In this document: positions 21,839 to 29,104 of the stretch, one piece after another
Layout of the letters: every line of letters starts with the position of its first letter
Position numbering within the stretch: the stretch's first letter is position 1
Assembly: GCF_001306055.1 (NCBI RefSeq)
Contig: NZ_LGHJ01000017.1
Span: 210,001 to 242,000 of the forward strand
Length of the DNA: 32,000 nt
Source of the DNA: Bellilinea caldifistulae
GTDB taxonomy: Bacteria; Chloroflexota; Anaerolineae; Anaerolineales; Anaerolineaceae
Reading direction: 5' to 3'
Program-made: the position numbers and the translations under genes
The notes under the pieces: model-generated
Databases searched by the model: none
What the model was told of the DNA's origin: nothing
What the model saw: only the letters and a program-made list of their open reading frames with translations

Positions 21839-21944
21839 CTTTCCTCCTCATCTCAAGATAACTTACAAAAACAACAATTGCCAGGGATGCCGCCGGCAGG
21901 CTGCACAGCGCCGCGGTAAAAGCTACCCACTCGTTCATGATTCA

Positions 21945-22176
21945 ACCTCCGCCCGTCTCTCCGGGCCGTCACACCACTTCAAACACCGCAGGTGTCGCGC
22001 GGGAGGCGTCCCTTGCCCTGTCCGCCTGGTCAAGCGTTCTTTCCGCTTTGTCCCCCGCCATTGCAGGCGGAGTTGTAGTCCAGCCGGGCGGGACTTGCAC
22101 CCGCCCAGGCCACTCTGGCGGCTGGATCGAAAGGAGGAGAAGATGAACGGAGTGTCTGGCACACCACCCCGCGCCG
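21945..22176 (-). ncRNA. Structured RNA domain homologous to the 3' third of the module B large RNA
   Basis: There is no credible frame; ORFs 21935-22546(-) and 21937-22146(+) are GC artefacts. It shares a 23-nt identical block GTGACGGCCCGGAGAGACGGGCG, the 19-nt T-loop block GGGTGCAAGTCCCGCCCGG, and compensatory helix changes relative to 28092-28263. Confidence 0.55.
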
Positions 22177-22392
22177 TTAGTCCCGGTTGCGCGACAAGAT
22201 CGCCTCGATCTCGTCGAGGGCTTCCATATTCTCCGCCAGTGCCGTTCCGGCTTTTGCCACCAGGTTGGCCGCCCGCTGGTGCGGAAATTCCTCCACCAGC
22301 CGTTTGAGCGATTCGCGGATCACCCGGTTTGCCAGCCGCGCACGGCTCAATTCTTGTCGGAATACATAACCGCCGATTTTCTTTTCGGTCAT
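22177..22392 (-). CDS. Hypothetical helical protein (71 aa from internal Met)
   Basis: The Met at 22392 has a GGAGGTG RBS. MTEKKIGGYVFRQELSRARLANRVIRESLKRLVEEF... has protein-like composition, unlike the upstream part of the listed 126-aa ORF. Confidence 0.5.
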   Translation of the reverse strand: MTEKKIGGYVFRQELSRARLANRVIRESLKRLVEEFPHQRAANLVAKAGTALAENMEALDEIEAILSRNRD

Positions 22393-23029: not shown

Positions 23030-23058
23030 ATTATAGCACCTTATATGAAAATGTCAAG
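23030..23058 (-). promoter_or_regulatory. Consensus sigma70 early promoter (TTGACA-17-TATAAT with TGn extension)
   Basis: On the minus strand, the -35 TTGACA is at 23053-58 and the -10 TATAAT at 23030-35, preceded by TGC. The spacer is 17 nt. It overlaps the start codon region of the plus-strand XRE gene. Confidence 0.6.
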
Positions 23059-23530
23059 CGTATCTTACAATAAATCAGGAAATTCTTGCATCGTTGATGA
23101 CATAATGTTAGGTGTGGATTACAATTTTTCCGAATGGTTGTTGAATCAGTTAAATTCACGTGGGTGGACACAAGCAGAACTGGCTCGCAGAGCAGGCGTT
23201 AGCCGAACAGCAATAAGTGATGTAATCTCTGACAAACACTCTGCTGGATTTGAACTTTGTCTTGCCATTTCTCGTGCGCTGAATCTGCCGCCCGAAACCG
23301 TCTTCCGTGCCGCCGGTCTCTTGCCGCCGGTTTCGCCGGCAATTGCACTCTCCGAAGAGGTAATGTATCTGCTGCAAAAGTTACCGGTGGAAGAACAAGA
23401 GCGTTTTCTTGCATTGTTAAGGTTTGAGGTGGAAAGACAAGCAAAAAAACCTCCAACAAAACCGCCAAAGAAAACATCGCCAACGAGCCGGGCAGAAAAA
23501 CCGGCTCGAAGTGCGTTAAAAGAAGAATAG
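23045..23530 (+). CDS. XRE-family HTH transcriptional regulator (CI-like prophage repressor candidate)
   Basis: 161 aa. SRGWTQAELARRAGVSRTAISDVISDKHSAGFELCLAISRAL is a classic XRE/Cro-CI HTH. It is divergent from the early operon. The C-terminal tail is lysine- and proline-rich. Confidence 0.8.
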   Translation: MKMSSVSYNKSGNSCIVDDIMLGVDYNFSEWLLNQLNSRGWTQAELARRAGVSRTAISDVISDKHSAGFELCLAISRALNLPPETVFRAAGLLPPVSPAIALSEEVMYLLQKLPVEEQERFLALLRFEVERQAKKPPTKPPKKTSPTSRAEKPARSALKEE

Positions 23531-23600: not shown

Positions 23601-24353
23601 ATGAAAGACAAAGTTTCCCTCACCCTTAATGGTGAAATTCCTGTCAATCTTTTTGCAGAAGCTATATCCGGCTTATCCGGTTTGCTTCATGCTCTTACTG
23701 AAGAGATCGCCGCTGGCAAAACTATTGAGTGGCAGATTATAGAGCTCAGCGCCGGCAGCGCCACGGCTGTCATTCAAGGAATTGCTGATACCGCCGAAGA
23801 CGTGGAAAAAATTACTACCGCATATGCTTTCATTGGTCGGCAGTTGCAAATTGGCAATACGATTCCTTATTCTCCAAAAGTTATTCAATCTGCAAGAAAG
23901 ATTGCCAGCATTCTTGACGGAAAAGTTTCTTCCATCGAATTCGGCATTGATGGCGAAATCTATCACATAACCCAATCTGGTTTTCAAGAAAAACCAATGA
24001 CCAAAGCCTATTCTTACGGCGTTATTACGGGAAAGGTAGAAAACCTGATTGGACATAAAACACTAAAATTTACTCTTTACGATAATCTTTTCAATCGTGG
24101 TGTTACCTGTTATGTAGAAGAGGAAAAACGCGAGTTATTAAGAAATATCTGGGGTAAAACCGTATCGGTTACCGGCTATATATACCGTGACATTATTACA
24201 GGTCGCCCTCTTGAAATTCACGACATTGAAACTGTTGAAATTGTTCCTATGAGAGAACCTGGTGCTTATAAAAAAGCTCGAGGCGCTCTTTCCTGGAAAC
24301 CCGGTGACGAAACTGCAGATCAAACCATACGGCGATTGAGAGATGACAATTAG
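23601..24353 (+). CDS. Unknown 250-aa protein, upstream partner of the PIN nuclease
   Basis: Low-GC ORF with a TATAAT at 23564-69 upstream. No motif recognised. The C-terminal ~90 aa (GVITGKVENLIGHKTLKFTLYD...VSVTGYIYRD...LEIHDIETVEIV) look like a small beta-barrel or OB-like domain. It overlaps the next gene by 11 nt. Confidence 0.6.
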   Translation: MKDKVSLTLNGEIPVNLFAEAISGLSGLLHALTEEIAAGKTIEWQIIELSAGSATAVIQGIADTAEDVEKITTAYAFIGRQLQIGNTIPYSPKVIQSARKIASILDGKVSSIEFGIDGEIYHITQSGFQEKPMTKAYSYGVITGKVENLIGHKTLKFTLYDNLFNRGVTCYVEEEKRELLRNIWGKTVSVTGYIYRDIITGRPLEIHDIETVEIVPMREPGAYKKARGALSWKPGDETADQTIRRLRDDN

Positions 24354-24843
24354 TAGACAAAATCTATACTGGGATTCTTGTGTGTTTCTTAGATACATCA
24401 ATAACGAATTAGATAGTACCATTATTGAAGAATTGATGAGACGAGCCGAATCGAAACAAGTCAACATTTTTACATCCACAATTACTATAGCCGAGGTAAC
24501 CCACGCAGCCCAGGAAAGAAATCAATCTGCCCTGAATTCAGTCATTGAAGATGTATTACAAAATCTGTTCGGTCCTCCTATCAAACTGGTAGATTATTCA
24601 ATAACCATTGGTTATGAAACCAGAGATTTCATTCGCACTGCGATGACTCATTCTAAAAAGATCAAGCCAATAGACGGTATTCACCTTACTACTGCATCCT
24701 GGATTGATCGTTACATTGCTCGGTTGGACGAATTCAACACTTATGATCAAGTCCTCAAGTCGCTCTATCCCGATATCATATCCATCAAAATTATTGAACC
24801 ACATGTTGATCAATTACCTTTATTCAACAATCCGCTCCCATAA
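24343..24843 (+). CDS. PIN-domain (VapC-like) ribonuclease
   Basis: 166 aa. The four acidic positions occur in PIN order: LYWDSCVFL (D), ITIAEVTH (E), KPIDGIHLTTA (D), FNTYDQVL (D). Confidence 0.7.
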   Translation: MTISRQNLYWDSCVFLRYINNELDSTIIEELMRRAESKQVNIFTSTITIAEVTHAAQERNQSALNSVIEDVLQNLFGPPIKLVDYSITIGYETRDFIRTAMTHSKKIKPIDGIHLTTASWIDRYIARLDEFNTYDQVLKSLYPDIISIKIIEPHVDQLPLFNNPLP

Positions 24844-25020: not shown

Positions 25021-25398
25021 ATGACAGAACCCTATTACGACAACAAAGCACAATATGACCGCATCCGCGGTTACATCATTCCCGGCGAAACCATCTTTGC
25101 CGTTTATGACTGCAAAGGCGGCGGCACGGGGTTTGTCGGCATTACGGATCGGCGCATCATCTTTTACGATCAGGCCTTCCTGACCAAAAAGAAATCAATG
25201 GTTTCGATCCCCTACAATCAGATCATCGGCATTGCCTCGGTGGATGAAGGAGTCATCTTTCAGACCAGCGAAATTACCCTGCTCACCGCCGCCGGCAATT
25301 ACACTTTCCAGTTCCGCGGCGCCGATAAAGCCCACAATGCCTACAGCTTCATCATGAATCAACTGCTTGGACAGGCACATCCCCAATTGAAGGGATAA
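25021..25398 (+). CDS. Bacterial PH-domain protein (YokE/bPH-like)
   Basis: 125 aa. GETIFAVYDCKGGGTGFVGITDRRIIFYDQAF...SIPYNQIIGIA...ITLLTAAGNYTFQF matches the bacterial pleckstrin-homology pattern. Confidence 0.65.
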   Translation: MTEPYYDNKAQYDRIRGYIIPGETIFAVYDCKGGGTGFVGITDRRIIFYDQAFLTKKKSMVSIPYNQIIGIASVDEGVIFQTSEITLLTAAGNYTFQFRGADKAHNAYSFIMNQLLGQAHPQLKG

Positions 25399-26864: not shown

Positions 26865-26920
26865 CGCACGGCAAAAAAAGCCACTTAAAAGTGGTGATTA
26901 ACAGGCTAGATATTCCAATC

Positions 26921-26957
26921 CGTGAGGTTCGGGGGTTCGAGCCCCTCCGCGCCCACC
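26921..26957 (+). other. tRNA 3'-end fragment (variable region, T-arm, acceptor 3' strand): prophage att core
   Basis: GGGGG-TTCGAGC-CCCTC-CGCGCCC-A-CC is a canonical T-arm plus acceptor 3' strand. No matching 5' acceptor strand, D-arm or anticodon arm can be folded upstream. It lies next to the integrase operon. Confidence 0.6.
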
Positions 26958-27041: not shown

Positions 27042-27506
27042 ATGGTTACACTCCCCACATTTCTACCCGTTGCCGAAGCCGCCCGCAAGTACGGGCTGGA
27101 TGAGGCCCGCTTGCGCGCTCTGATTGAGAAAGGTAAAATCAGGGCTGGAGTGGTTGCGGGAGAAATGGTCGTGAGCGAAGAAGAAGTACGAGGACAAGCC
27201 ATTGAGGAGAAAGGTCTCCACAAAGAGGATTTGCCGGAGTATCAGAAACATGCGCATTTGAAAGGGCAGGCAATTTGGATTAGAGAAGCAGAAAGAAGTT
27301 ACGGAGTACCAGCAGAAACTTTATCCACATGGGCTAAAAAGGGATATATTAGAATAGTTGGTAAAAAAGGAAACAAAGTTTTGCTGGATGAAGCGGATGT
27401 TGCTTATTGTTCAGATGTATACAGAAAATCAGGCAAGCAAGGACGCATTCTGTTCAATCCAGATGGAACTCCTTATAAACCTAAAACAACTTCACTTGTG
27501 ATGTAA
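27042..27506 (+). CDS. Tandem excisionase/MerR-type HTH protein
   Basis: The preferred start is ATG 27042 (AGGAAGG RBS), since the upstream part of ORF 26922-27506 overlaps the tRNA fragment and terminator. It has two HTH repeats: LPVAEAARKYGLDEARLRALIEKGKIRA and IWIREAERSYGVPAETLSTWAKKGYIRI. Confidence 0.6.
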   Translation: MVTLPTFLPVAEAARKYGLDEARLRALIEKGKIRAGVVAGEMVVSEEEVRGQAIEEKGLHKEDLPEYQKHAHLKGQAIWIREAERSYGVPAETLSTWAKKGYIRIVGKKGNKVLLDEADVAYCSDVYRKSGKQGRILFNPDGTPYKPKTTSLVM

Positions 27507-27549
27507 CTTAATTAAGAGCGCAGTTTTGATCTGCAATATTTATTTTCTT

Positions 27550-27593
27550 AATTGTCAGAAGTTATTGACGCTTCTGACAATTAATGCTATACT
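27550..27593 (+). promoter_or_regulatory. Near-consensus sigma70 promoter (TTGACG-17-TATACT) embedded in a perfect 12-bp inverted repeat operator
   Basis: The -35 is at 27565-70 and the -10 at 27588-93. AATTGTCAGAAG (27550-61) and CTTCTGACAATT (27571-82) flank the -35. The surrounding context is AT-rich. Confidence 0.7.
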
Positions 27594-27599
27594 CCTCAT

Positions 27600-28290
27600 A
27601 GCACTTTTACAAACCAGCGTCCCGCTGAATGCCTCAAACACAACGCCCCGGCGAAAGGGCGTTGTGCGCCCGACCGGGGCGTTCCGTGAGCCGTGCGGTA
27701 ACACGCTCACGGTTGAGGCAAGCAGACCGTGACTGCTCACCCCATCCGCGATTGTAGCATGAGATGACAGCCCTCTGCAAGCCTCTCACAAGGAATGTGA
27801 TTTGCAGAGGGCTTTGTGTTTCCCGTGCGGTGTTGGCTCAAGGCCTTTCAGGCGGCAGGTGCGTTGTGGCGGGTTCAAGTCCCGCCCGCCTGAATTCCGG
27901 TTTTGCCATGCTAACGTCGGCTGAGCAGGGAGGTGGGAGCGGGGCTGAGTCATCAGCACCCGGCGGGGTAAGGGACGGGGAGCCCTTGCCTGACGGTGCG
28001 GCAGGTGAGACCATCGGAAGCCTGCCGGGGGACGTGACAGCCGGGAGAGACCGGCAAGCACCTTGACAAGCGACATGGTAATCCTCTGTTTCCAACCGCC
28101 ATAGACGGGCAGGATGATCCCCGATCCTGCGGTGGGTGCAAGTCCCGCCCGGTTGGACTGCCAAACCTGTCGGTGTCGTTGCACCATCAACGGACAGGTG
28201 CAGCCCGGCACACCCTAACCAGTGTCGGGAAACAGGCAGGGTGACGGCCCGGAGAGACGGGCGCGAGGGCAATCCCTCTCACTTGATCAA
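27600..28290 (+). ncRNA. Large (~690 nt) highly structured phage RNA of unassigned class (GOLLD/ROOL-like context), co-transcribed with tRNA-Met
   Basis: It has no credible ORF. Perfect helices include 27640-48/27657-65, 27684-91/27705-12, 27769-80/27802-13 and 27999-28005/28021-27. There are two GAGAGA-loop hairpins, two tRNA-like T-arm modules, a promoter upstream and a tRNA immediately downstream. Confidence 0.6.
27769..27821 (+). terminator. Possible internal attenuator/terminator-like hairpin within the large RNA
   Basis: 12-bp stem AGCCCTCTGCAA/TTGCAGAGGGCT with an inner TCACA/TGTGA helix, followed by TTTGTGTTT. It could yield a short ~220-nt RNA, with read-through giving the long form. 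Confidence 0.3.
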
Positions 28291-28361
28291 GCGGGAGTAG
28301 CTCAACGGAAGAGCGGCGGCGTCATGAGCCGCAGGGTGAAGGTTCAAATCCTTCTTCCCGT
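28291..28361 (+). tRNA. tRNA with CAU anticodon (Met, or Ile2 if lysidine-modified)
   Basis: Hand-folded cloverleaf: acceptor GCGGGAG/TTCCCGT (two G-U pairs), D-arm GCTC-AACGGAA-GAGC, anticodon arm GCGGC-GTCATGA-GCCGC, variable AGGGT, T-arm GAAGG-TTCAAAT-CCTTC. No encoded CCA. Confidence 0.8.
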
Positions 28362-28382
28362 TCTGTGAAAACGAGGTTTCTC

Positions 28383-28592
28383 ATGTGTGAGCATCGAAGG
28401 AAAGTTGGCGACAATTACGGACTGACCTGCCTGGACTGCGGCGAGGTGTTGGAAGGCTACGGCTATTGGGGACAGACCGATACCTGCCGTCACGTCTGGA
28501 TGAAAAGCGAAGGCGGCTATGAGTGCCTGTACTGCCAAGAATGGCTGAACGAGGAAACCCGGCAGATGTTTCATGGGGGTGAGCAACCATGA
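28383..28592 (+). CDS. Small Cys-rich (Zn-finger) protein
   Basis: The preferred start is ATG 28383 (GAGG RBS) rather than the GTG at 28365 that abuts the tRNA. The sequence is MCEHRRKVGDNYGLTCLDCGEVL...CRHVW...YECLYCQEW. Its stop overlaps the next start (ATGA). Confidence 0.5.
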   Translation: MCEHRRKVGDNYGLTCLDCGEVLEGYGYWGQTDTCRHVWMKSEGGYECLYCQEWLNEETRQMFHGGEQP

Positions 28593-29104
28593 AAATCAGA
28601 ATGCCGTTAGAAGAAGCCGAACGAATTGCGCTGAAATACGCCGAAATGCTTGCGCCGAAATGCGAGCGTATTGAGATCGCCGGGAGTATTCGGCGGCGTA
28701 AGCCAATGGTAGGCGACATTGAGATTGTGGCAAAGCCGCTGATGTCCACAGACTTGTTCGGCTTTTCCACCGGTCATCAAGACCTAACGCTGCCCTTGCC
28801 AACAAGTAAAAACGGGCAGAGGTACAAACAATATCTTCTGCCGGAAGGTGTAATGCTTGATTTGTTCATTGTCCTGCCACCTGCCCAGTGGGGCGTGATT
28901 TTCGCCATCCGCACGGGTGGGGCGGAGTTTTCCCGCAAACTTGTCACGGCGAAACGATACGGTGGTTACCTGCCGTCTGCTTACGTGGTGAGAGACGGCG
29001 CGGTTCATCGTGTTGATACCGGGGAGATGATCCTTACCCCCGAAGAAATTGATTTTTTCAATCTCTGTGAACTGGACTGGATCAAACCCGAAGAAAGGAA
29101 TTGA
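28589..29104 (+). CDS. Minimal Pol X-family (Pol beta-like) nucleotidyltransferase / DNA polymerase, second copy
   Basis: 171 aa. AGSIRRRKPMVGDIEIVA (GS...D.E), MLDLFIV, IRTGGAEFSRKLVT and LCELDWIKPEERN occur in the same motif order as 15468-16028 and as the ASFV Pol X I recall. Confidence 0.7.
   Translation: MKIRMPLEEAERIALKYAEMLAPKCERIEIAGSIRRRKPMVGDIEIVAKPLMSTDLFGFSTGHQDLTLPLPTSKNGQRYKQYLLPEGVMLDLFIVLPPAQWGVIFAIRTGGAEFSRKLVTAKRYGGYLPSAYVVRDGAVHRVDTGEMILTPEEIDFFNLCELDWIKPEERN

Follow-up and report, generated by a model that had tools for sequence, protein, structure and literature searches.

GOLLD RNAs have a conserved 3' core, and ROOL RNAs a multi-pseudoknot fold of about 580 nucleotides (nt). 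Minihelices made of an acceptor stem and a T arm have long served as the minimal substrates for RNase P and for the enzymes acting on tRNA 3' ends. GOLLD occurs in the neighbourhood of tRNA islands, its linker sometimes holding tRNAs, and one GOLLD RNA has a Met-tRNA as its neighbour (bioRxiv 10.1101/2024.12.08.627333). The put RNA of phage HK022 measures about 74 nt, folds into two long stems and a triplex, and binds the zinc-binding domain of beta' (PMC9378689). The RNA described here lies in a 32,000-nt stretch of the Bellilinea caldifistulae genome (assembly GCF_001306055.1, contig NZ_LGHJ01000017.1, positions 210,001 to 242,000), which is called the window and to which all coordinates refer. 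The early (replication) operon of an integrative, phage-like element of Anaerolineae opens with an untranslated leader, positions 27600-28363, which is transcribed from an operator-controlled promoter. This leader is a conserved, promoter-driven, non-coding RNA composed of separable modules, and it represents a new modular leader-RNA family in the mobile elements of Anaerolineae. Among its modules are two copies of a small two-stem motif, GARAGA, that is an RNA family of its own, apparently undescribed.

The leader resembles GOLLD and ROOL in being long, GC-rich and highly structured, in residing in a phage-like element, and in its tRNA-like parts and link to a tRNA-Met. It shares their context as well, a phage or prophage and a place beside a tRNA, although this is insufficient for membership. 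Unlike them, it is without an Rfam match, is a chain of autonomous modules, forms the 5' leader of a replication operon and has an Anaerolineae host. Rfam 15 (4227 families) was searched with the whole window at gathering thresholds and with the 1.1 kb from 27400 to 28500 at E<=10. Only tRNAs and sub-threshold noise were returned, for example a group II D1-D4 fragment with 12.4 bits (E=5), and no GOLLD, ROOL, C4, tmRNA, RNase P or intron. ARAGORN, which would also report a tmRNA, finds only the tRNA, and BLAST of the 851-nt region against cultured phages gives a match through the tRNA only. The initial annotation had considered that the RNA may be a divergent GOLLD or ROOL; apart from the tRNAs and this noise, neither model nor any other of the 4227 families matches at E<=10, and that assignment is not supported.

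The place of the leader is the same throughout its relatives. It is preceded by a gene for a tandem helix-turn-helix (HTH) protein, excisionase- or MerR-like, and followed by a small Zn-ribbon-like open reading frame (ORF), a 171-aa Pol-beta-like nucleotidyltransferase, SSB and further early genes. The order of HTH gene, terminator hairpin, palindrome-flanked promoter, ORF-free leader and Zn-ribbon, nucleotidyltransferase and SSB genes is fixed. A scan with the HTH protein, using one genome per species, found 80 loci, nearly all in Anaerolineae/Chloroflexota, and in most of these an intact host tRNA gene is located 80-160 nt 5' of the HTH gene. A tRNA fragment, between the integrase module and the HTH gene, occupies this usual tRNA place in the window; it is the attachment-site (att) junction and thus the left end of the integrative element to which the leader belongs. 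The integrase and module A, farther left, are part of a neighbouring element, and the junction implies that two integrative elements stand in tandem at one tRNA site. The 'phage module B' of the initial annotation is thus a mobile element as claimed, but it is separate from the integrase-bearing module at its left, and its early genes are replication genes.

About 690 nt between the promoter and tRNA-Met are free of ORFs. None of the ORFs that overlap the leader has a Pfam match, and in 20 homologs the substitutions are spread evenly over the three codon phases (599/671/648), while most short indels are not multiples of 3. The sole small ORF with an ATG start, at the 5' end of the leader, is unconserved among the homologs. 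A coding hypothesis was rejected on these three grounds (Pfam, codon periodicity, frame-breaking indels), as the initial annotation had judged from the reading frames.

Homologous leaders were found at about 20 genome loci, by nhmmer searches 3' of the HTH gene, and at about 20 metagenome loci, by pattern scan (loci are given L numbers below). They are 470-1040 nt long, ORF-free and in the same position. Conservation along them is strongly uneven. Two tRNA-like elements, TLS1 and TLS2, and the cores of the two motif copies are kept, while the region of a perfect 12-bp hairpin is replaced in most homologs, the hairpin itself surviving only in the closest relatives. Either 27907-28031 or all of motif copy 1 is missing in L268, L251, L252, L274 and L279, the loss extending to the whole module in L268, L251, L252 and L279; extra inserts occur in some homologs between modules and ahead of the tRNA (larger in L258 and L260); and the tRNA-Met is present in L258, L260 and L264 only. 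No conserved long-range helices between modules were found among the homologs, except P1 of motif copy 1. Because modules are gained and lost independently, the leader is unlike one integrated giant fold. The motif also stands alone in hundreds of unrelated phage contigs. The single large RNA of the initial annotation is therefore replaced by a modular chain.

In several genomes two elements of this kind are present: Thermanaerothrix solaris (L250/L258), Anaerolinea thermolimosa (L262/L268) and T. daxensis (L263/L267). Many assemblies end inside the leader, less than about 1 kb past the HTH gene (L250, L252, L254, L256, L257, L259, L265, L266 and others), and assemblers probably treat the near-identical 5' domain as a repeat.

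The two GAGAGA hairpins noticed at the outset are the cores of the GARAGA motif, which spans about 50 nt and has the consensus 5' R-AC-nnn(loop or insert)nnn-GU GAC R G-nnn-G GAGAGA C-nnn-C A. A first stem (P1), a four-nt junction (J) and a second stem (P2) with its loop follow one another. In copy 1, P1 pairs ACGUC (27914-18) with GACGU (28031-35) around a 112-nt insert in its loop; J is GACA (28036-39), P2 is GCCGG/CCGGC (28040-44/28051-55) and the loop is GAGAGA (28045-50). Copy 2 has ACCCU (28212-16) paired with AGGGU (28238-42), J GACG, P2 GCCCG/CGGGC (28247-62) and the same loop. The swap of GCCGG for GCCCG between the two copies is a true compensatory change. In L250 and L264, P1 of copy 1 is identical but short-looped, and these score 54-55 bits. 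The window holds three GARAGA copies in all (40-45 bits, E<=1e-9), the third being in module A (covariance model R1, 45.2 bits, E=4.5e-11), and each homologous leader contains 1-2 copies, on the + strand without exception.

The motif is supported by its own statistics in viral sequence, and both of its stems covary strongly. At least 120 IMG/VR contigs contain the 20-mer GACRGCCSGGAGAGACSGGC exactly, and of 116 unique instances 114 have its two S positions complementary. In 72 of the 116, P1 stops exactly at GAC, compared with 36 +/- 5 in shuffles and 13-18 when the anchor is shifted; the two pairs that open P1 are invariant (A-U, C-G) and the inner pairs covary. A relaxed scan with GTGACRG-NNNN-GAGAGA-NNNN-CA added 77 further instances, 68 of which have the four free positions fully complementary and very diverse. 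Pairing reaches 98.3% of cells in the 57 sequences of an independent set, in an alignment that was fitted to the model, which favours P1, and in which P2 is anchored by invariant flanks; slid-partner controls give 24-43% pairing. Double-change cells in this set number 101, as against 23 +/- 4 in shuffles, with up to six pair types per position. G-U pairs, together with an orientation that is constant relative to genes, identify the transcript, on the gene strand, as the structured strand. About 20 nucleotides, in the junction, loop and closing pairs, are invariant. GAAAGA replaces the usual loop in L095 and in mEp390, a phage of E. coli, the P1 loop can accommodate more than 100 nt of insert, and the base after P2 is A in 74% of instances, with ACC(A) enriched. 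Likenesses to the SRL, CsrA sites, k-turns, hammerheads and boxA were dropped by eye, the defining nucleotides being out of line. Rfam searches of 15 motif-bearing viral loci, and of 350 nt around the motif of L025 at E<=10, gave no family for the motif. No description of it was found in the searchable literature, although an unnamed entry in a large survey of 10,006 csRNAs is possible.

GARAGA is found in well over 190 IMG/VR contigs, in phages that infect several bacterial phyla including Proteobacteria and Cyanobacteria. Cultured phages that carry it, always in unannotated intergenic sequence, include Cronobacter CS01/ESP2949-1, E. coli mEp390, Pseudomonas Medea1, Stenotrophomonas Pokken, Rhodobacter RcCWillis, Phaeobacter MD18 and several cyanophages; the mEp390 version is present, unannotated, in 1 of 5426 E. 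coli genomes. Single-sequence nhmmer comparison of the leader with the motif-bearing viral loci detects similarity in the motif only. A tRNA is present in 18 of the 120 viral loci listed, nearly always on the motif strand and within about 200 nt. It begins 2-6 nt past the motif in five loci (L050, L045, L119, L104, L095), and in eleven the motif is 50-190 nt 3' of the tRNA; eight of the tRNAs are tRNA-Met. Arrays of two or three motifs ending in a tRNA, a layout similar to that of the window, occur in L095, L104, L014, L078, L068 and L070, and up to three copies can be packed into 260 nt. Start codons lie 10-30 nt 3' of the motif in about 36 of 118 instances. The genes that they open are of unrelated kinds: head-tail adaptors, terminase, methylase, HNH proteins and small unknowns.

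Two further observations concern these viral loci. Motif-adjacent phage tRNAs are often 87-98 nt long, with insertions and odd ARAGORN anticodons such as Asp(auc) (L104 1498-1595; L119 747-843 and 887-973; L045 65-152; L042 5739-5832); they may be intron-containing tRNAs or non-canonical tRNA-like RNAs. In mEp390 (L128) the GAAAGA variant, at 2488-2525, comes after a CI-like repressor and a small ORF, and heads a 300-nt ORF-free stretch where lambda has nutL and HK022 has putL.

The two T-arm modules pointed out by the initial annotation are present, and both are enclosed in acceptor-like helices. TLS1 consists of a 9-bp acceptor-like stem (27847-55/27886-94), a 13-nt linker, the T arm GCGGG-UUCAAGU-CCCGC and then A-AUU; it has neither a D arm nor an anticodon arm. 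TLS2 has an 8-bp acceptor-like stem, UCCAACCG/CGGUUGGA (28091-98/28150-57), a 7-bp middle arm (28109-15/28124-30) and a T arm with the loop UGCAAGU, again with no D arm. An acceptor pair of TLS2 changes from G-C to A-U in three sequences, a T-stem pair is U-A, C-G or U-G, and a compensatory acceptor-stem change separates TLS2 from its module A paralog. Both elements thus combine an acceptor-like helix of 7-9 bp, a T stem of 5-6 bp, a 7-nt T loop (UUCRAnU and UGCAAGU) and covariation. Neither is called a tRNA by ARAGORN or by the Rfam tRNA model, which in the leader call only 28291-28363, the tRNA-Met(CAU) into which the leader runs as first described. Embedded minihelices with an acceptor stem and T arm are otherwise known from MALAT1 mascRNA, the tRNA-miRNA units of MHV68, mitochondrial tRNA punctuation and the stable RNAs of the T4 tRNA cluster. 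Unlike mascRNA-type signals, TLS1 scores far below the threshold of the mascRNA model (21.5 bits, E=0.14, compared with a gathering threshold of 42.5 bits) and belongs to a bacterial mobile element. By analogy with the minimal substrates named above, TLS1 and TLS2 would be cleaved by tRNA-processing enzymes.

The T-arm 15-mer GGTGCAAGTCCCGCC was tried against viral contigs and rejected: the 120 matches listed are ordinary phage tRNA T arms or chance, and the motif is near none of them. A longer TLS2 acceptor pattern had no viral matches. Among the viral contigs L130-L249, the non-canonical T loop UGCAAGU (G at 55), as in TLS2, is common in phage tRNAs including tRNA-Met, and the tRNA-like sequence gacagtggagcgttacaaaataacacaagaatatgtaacaaagcgGGTGCAAGTCCCGCCaccgcc recurs in more than 10 contigs.

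The 5' domain is specific to Anaerolineae elements. Positions 27632-27745 retain 85-100% nucleotide identity in all homologs, while the adjacent HTH protein retains only 50-81% amino-acid identity. Among 34 distinct sequences the stems are invariant, and loops and linkers vary in sequence and in length (1-4 nt). This constraint at the level of sequence suggests contact with a host machine. The segment AACGCCCCGG (27642-51) is perfectly complementary to both 27657-66 and 27674-83. Rare variants retain both pairings, L253 altering both partners in a compensatory manner, and GGGCGC variants make the 3:4 helix stronger. Two mutually exclusive helices suggest a conformational switch. A pattern of the 5'-domain hairpins had 0 matches in IMG/VR, and the domain has no Rfam family; the same pattern listed 120 matches in metagenomes, mostly GC-rich chance, with only about 20-25 true homologs. 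The GARAGA and TLS stems covary; in the 5' domain, with its invariant stems, covariation is scarce. All four perfect helices of the initial annotation were reproduced, the first being 10 bp rather than 9.

The promoter is also kept. Its -35 and -10 boxes are conserved in about 20 aligned homologs, and in the window it agrees with the consensus at 10 of 12 positions and has a TG-extended -10, as near to consensus as had been said. Transcription would start at about 27600. The inverted repeat that brackets the promoter is perfect over 14 nt, longer than the 12 bp initially claimed. Its arms vary between elements (L250-L279) but are always palindromic, and the enclosed TTGACA and the -10 box are invariant. 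To judge from the sequences, the divergence of the arms suggests the pattern of heteroimmune repressor/operator pairs, and the tandem-HTH protein next door may be the repressor. In the homolog alignment the terminator slot of the HTH gene contains a GC hairpin that is different at every locus, followed by TTTT. Coordinates are collected in Table 1.

Table 1. Features of the leader and related units, in window coordinates.
Feature	Position	Strand	Basis
Unit in module A paralogous to the leader's 3' part: minihelix 22126-22079, hairpin, GARAGA 21999-21947	21947..22126	-	nhmmer, E=3.5e-5
tRNA 3' fragment (T arm, acceptor 3' strand, ACC), att junction	26913..26957	+	sequence reading
Intrinsic terminator of the tandem-HTH gene (hairpin and T-rich tail)	27519..27549	+	homolog alignment
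Operator-like inverted repeat around the -35 box, perfect, 14 nt	27548-61/27571-84	.	repeat search
Sigma-70-type early promoter, TTGACG-17-TATACT	27565..27593	+	10/12 consensus positions; extended -10 TG
Ultra-conserved 5' leader domain: AGCACCUUUCCAAACC leader, then four hairpins	27600..27750	+	homolog alignment
10-bp helix	27639-48/27657-66	+	repeat search
8-bp helix	27684-91/27705-12	+	repeat search
Perfect 12-bp hairpin, variable module	27769-80/27802-13	+	repeat search
TLS1, tRNA-like minihelix	27847..27894	+	alignment, with G-C/A-U exchanges in T stem
GARAGA copy 1	27912..28057	+	R1 core, 40.3 bits, E=1e-9
7-bp helix	27999-28005/28021-27	+	repeat search
TLS2, tRNA-like element	28091..28157	+	alignment
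Spacer hairpin between TLS2 and GARAGA copy 2	28165..28199	+	repeat; pairs covary among homologs
GARAGA copy 2	28212..28263	+	R1, 43 bits, E=2e-10; conserved in homologs
Small hairpin GAGGG-CAAU-CCCUC in the 28-nt spacer 5' of the tRNA	28265..28278	+	sequence reading
tRNA-Met (CAU), 3' CCA not encoded	28291..28363	+	ARAGORN; Rfam tRNA, 60.8 bits

For the function of these modules we favour, with belief and doubt in about equal parts, a precursor that is cut at its tRNA-like marks and in which GARAGA elements act autonomously in cis for processing or end definition. Host enzymes would cut at tRNA-Met and the two minihelices, RNase P on the 5' side and RNase Z or exonucleases on the 3' side. The cuts would free the 5'-domain RNA, the spacer RNAs and the downstream mRNA from each other. 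A GARAGA module would close each spacer at its 3' end, directly ahead of the following tRNA, tRNA-like element or ribosome-binding site; a conserved host factor would recognise it, and RNA ends would be defined, protected or insulated. Downstream tRNAs and cistrons could then be expressed independently of upstream sequence. The 5' domain, specific to Anaerolineae, would most likely gate read-through into the replication genes. In lying between phage cistrons and just 5' of ribosome-binding sites, GARAGA is comparable with the intercistronic RNase III sites of T7 and with 5'/3' stabiliser hairpins. Unlike the T7 sites, it has two short helices with an invariant loop and junction and no long duplex, and it occurs in unrelated phages of different phyla.

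Several observations weigh against this reading. The processing that we propose is pure inference. TLS1, TLS2 and the tRNA-Met are all without an encoded CCA. The invariant loop, GAC-R junction and closing pairs of GARAGA exceed what end protection would need and point to specific recognition or catalysis that has no name in this model. In the 5' domain double changes affect only 3 of 33 predicted pairs, and because the stems are invariant, covariation cannot prove its fold. The minimum free energy of the + strand has a z-score of -4.5 against dinucleotide shuffles, but the - strand, with z = -3.5, also folds better than shuffles, so that folding energy alone is not decisive; that the leader is beyond chance follows from its conservation in about 40 related loci, which is weightier than the z-score.

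Processive antitermination is possible, though we hold it to be unlikely. The 5' domain, GARAGA or both would bind RNA polymerase or Nus factors and confer resistance to Rho and terminators along the lengthy untranslated leader with its tRNA and through the operon that follows. Like put, nut and boxBAC, the leader is promoter-proximal, structured and part of an early operon; the motif lies 330-660 nt past the module B promoter and about 1 kb past that of module A, and in mEp390 it has the leftward early-leader position equivalent to nutL/putL. P2 shares with boxB a 5-bp GC stem and an all-purine loop, and GARAGA adjoins tRNAs in untranslated RNA as rrn spacer signals do. Untranslated arrays of tRNAs and non-coding RNAs are natural targets of Rho, and a loop and junction invariant across phyla would fit a universally conserved partner. 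The 5' domain, like put, is restricted to one host lineage; put itself, the precedent for an RNA of this type, is described in PMC9378689. The distribution of GARAGA fits this model less well, since copies in late/structural operons before start codons or tRNAs, as many as three together, would be needless for a factor that rides on the polymerase. The motif also differs from put, nut and boxBAC in sequence and shape and in being present many times per genome, right before start codons and tRNAs, and in spanning phyla with no phage protein in common. As described, the shape of put is unlike that of the motif and that of the 5' domain, and no likeness in sequence is apparent. Terminator-like sites are not enriched downstream of the motif; considered in either direction from it, their absence counts neither for nor against a transcriptional role.

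That GARAGA is a new small self-cleaving ribozyme, with the leader cut by its own modules instead of or besides RNase P, seems improbable to us. Its size of about 45-50 nt, its invariant junction, loop and closing pairs, its covarying stems and a P1 loop that accepts inserts of more than 100 nt would suit one, as would its intergenic, often tandem occurrence in phages before unrelated genes. Weinberg et al. are said to have noted in 2015 that such a distribution is typical of hammerhead, twister and pistol ribozymes in phages. Against it, the motif has only two helices and a 4-nt junction, no conserved pseudoknot partner was detected, and no known class in Rfam matches even weakly: models for hammerhead, twister, twister-sister, pistol, hatchet and HDV-like ribozymes had no match in the leader, in the 15 viral loci or around the motif of L025.

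Even more doubtful is an immunity or copy-control RNA of the P4 CI or P1/P7 C4 type, in which a small RNA excised by RNase P pairs with complementary segments of the leader and so terminates transcription of the replication genes or silences them. The biology of P4 is reportedly set out by Forti et al. (1995). Like those RNAs, the leader is untranslated, belongs to the early or replication operon of a tRNA-integrated element, as in P4, and has tRNA-like signals of the RNase P type; it contains complementary segments, AACGCCCCGG and its two partners, with both pairings compensated in L253. It is much longer than they are, has no Rfam C4 match, and has its complementary segments adjacent, so that they look like an intramolecular switch rather than a small RNA and its target. 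The promoter, moreover, already has a protein operator, whose sequence varies between elements in the manner of immunity determinants.

One large integrated RNA of the GOLLD or ROOL kind, a divergent member or a new class and possibly a multimeric cage, is very unlikely. The length of about 700 nt and the strong folding recall those families along with the contextual features discussed above, but no model matches at E<=10, homologs range from 470 to 1040 nt through independent gain and loss of modules, the 3' unit stands alone in module A, and long-range helices between modules, that of copy 1 P1 excepted, are not conserved. A DNA-level element (origin, packaging or recombination site) or a decayed tRNA array without RNA function is exceedingly improbable: the 5'-domain stems are invariant beyond structural need, replication genes adjoin and the T-arm fragments could be tRNA relics, but variation in the 5' domain is confined to hairpin loops, the motif and TLS stems use G-U pairs, the motif keeps strictly to one strand relative to genes at hundreds of loci, compensatory changes uphold the minihelices against decay, and a strong promoter drives the region.

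Module A has, on the - strand, a unit of the same kind in the gap between an ORF that stops at 22177 and an ATG at 21937. Its minihelix retains the acceptor stem and T arm of the TLS2 type without the middle arm. The early operon promoter of module A, a perfect TTGACA-16-TATAAT with TG (23057-23030, - strand), diverges from a cI-like HTH_3 repressor gene (23045-23530, + strand), and the minihelix and GARAGA follow about 1 kb downstream. A second minihelix (21648-21598, - strand), directly after a small ORF, has GGUGGGG, a 20-nt linker, CAGG-UUCGAAU-CCUG, CCCCGCC and A-AUU, and is TLS1-like including the A-AUU tail. In the interval between repressor and integrase, a low-GC island (39-44%) encodes a PIN-domain protein (24343-24843, + strand) and a PH/GRAM-domain protein (25021-25398, + strand), possibly moron or defence cargo. 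Downstream of the leader, the 171-aa protein (28589-29104, + strand) has weak Pol-beta palm and thumb matches, is minimal and PolX-like, and is optional in homologous elements. Six IMG/VR loci with relatives of this nucleotidyltransferase have no tRNA and no homolog of the RNA.

GOLLD and ROOL beside phage tRNAs have been a long-standing puzzle, and the leader is a third, unrelated example in which the parts are separable. More speculatively, GARAGA could be a new class of phage RNA in at least three phyla, either a minimal self-cleaving ribozyme or an antiterminator that binds polymerase or Nus factors directly, the 5' domain a second, lineage-specific regulatory RNA that is put-like or a switch, and the leader the founding case of a modular 'RNA island' architecture by which the expression of phage tRNAs and operons is organised; we advance this tentatively. 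The motif is present in cultivable phages of E. coli, Cronobacter, Pseudomonas, Stenotrophomonas, Rhodobacter and cyanobacteria, so that its function is directly testable. If it is a processing, insulating or antitermination signal, GARAGA would be a general design rule of phage operons and potentially a portable tool. In the Anaerolineae elements, a 5' domain more conserved than the adjacent proteins points to close contact with a host machine, in a phylum that has been little studied.

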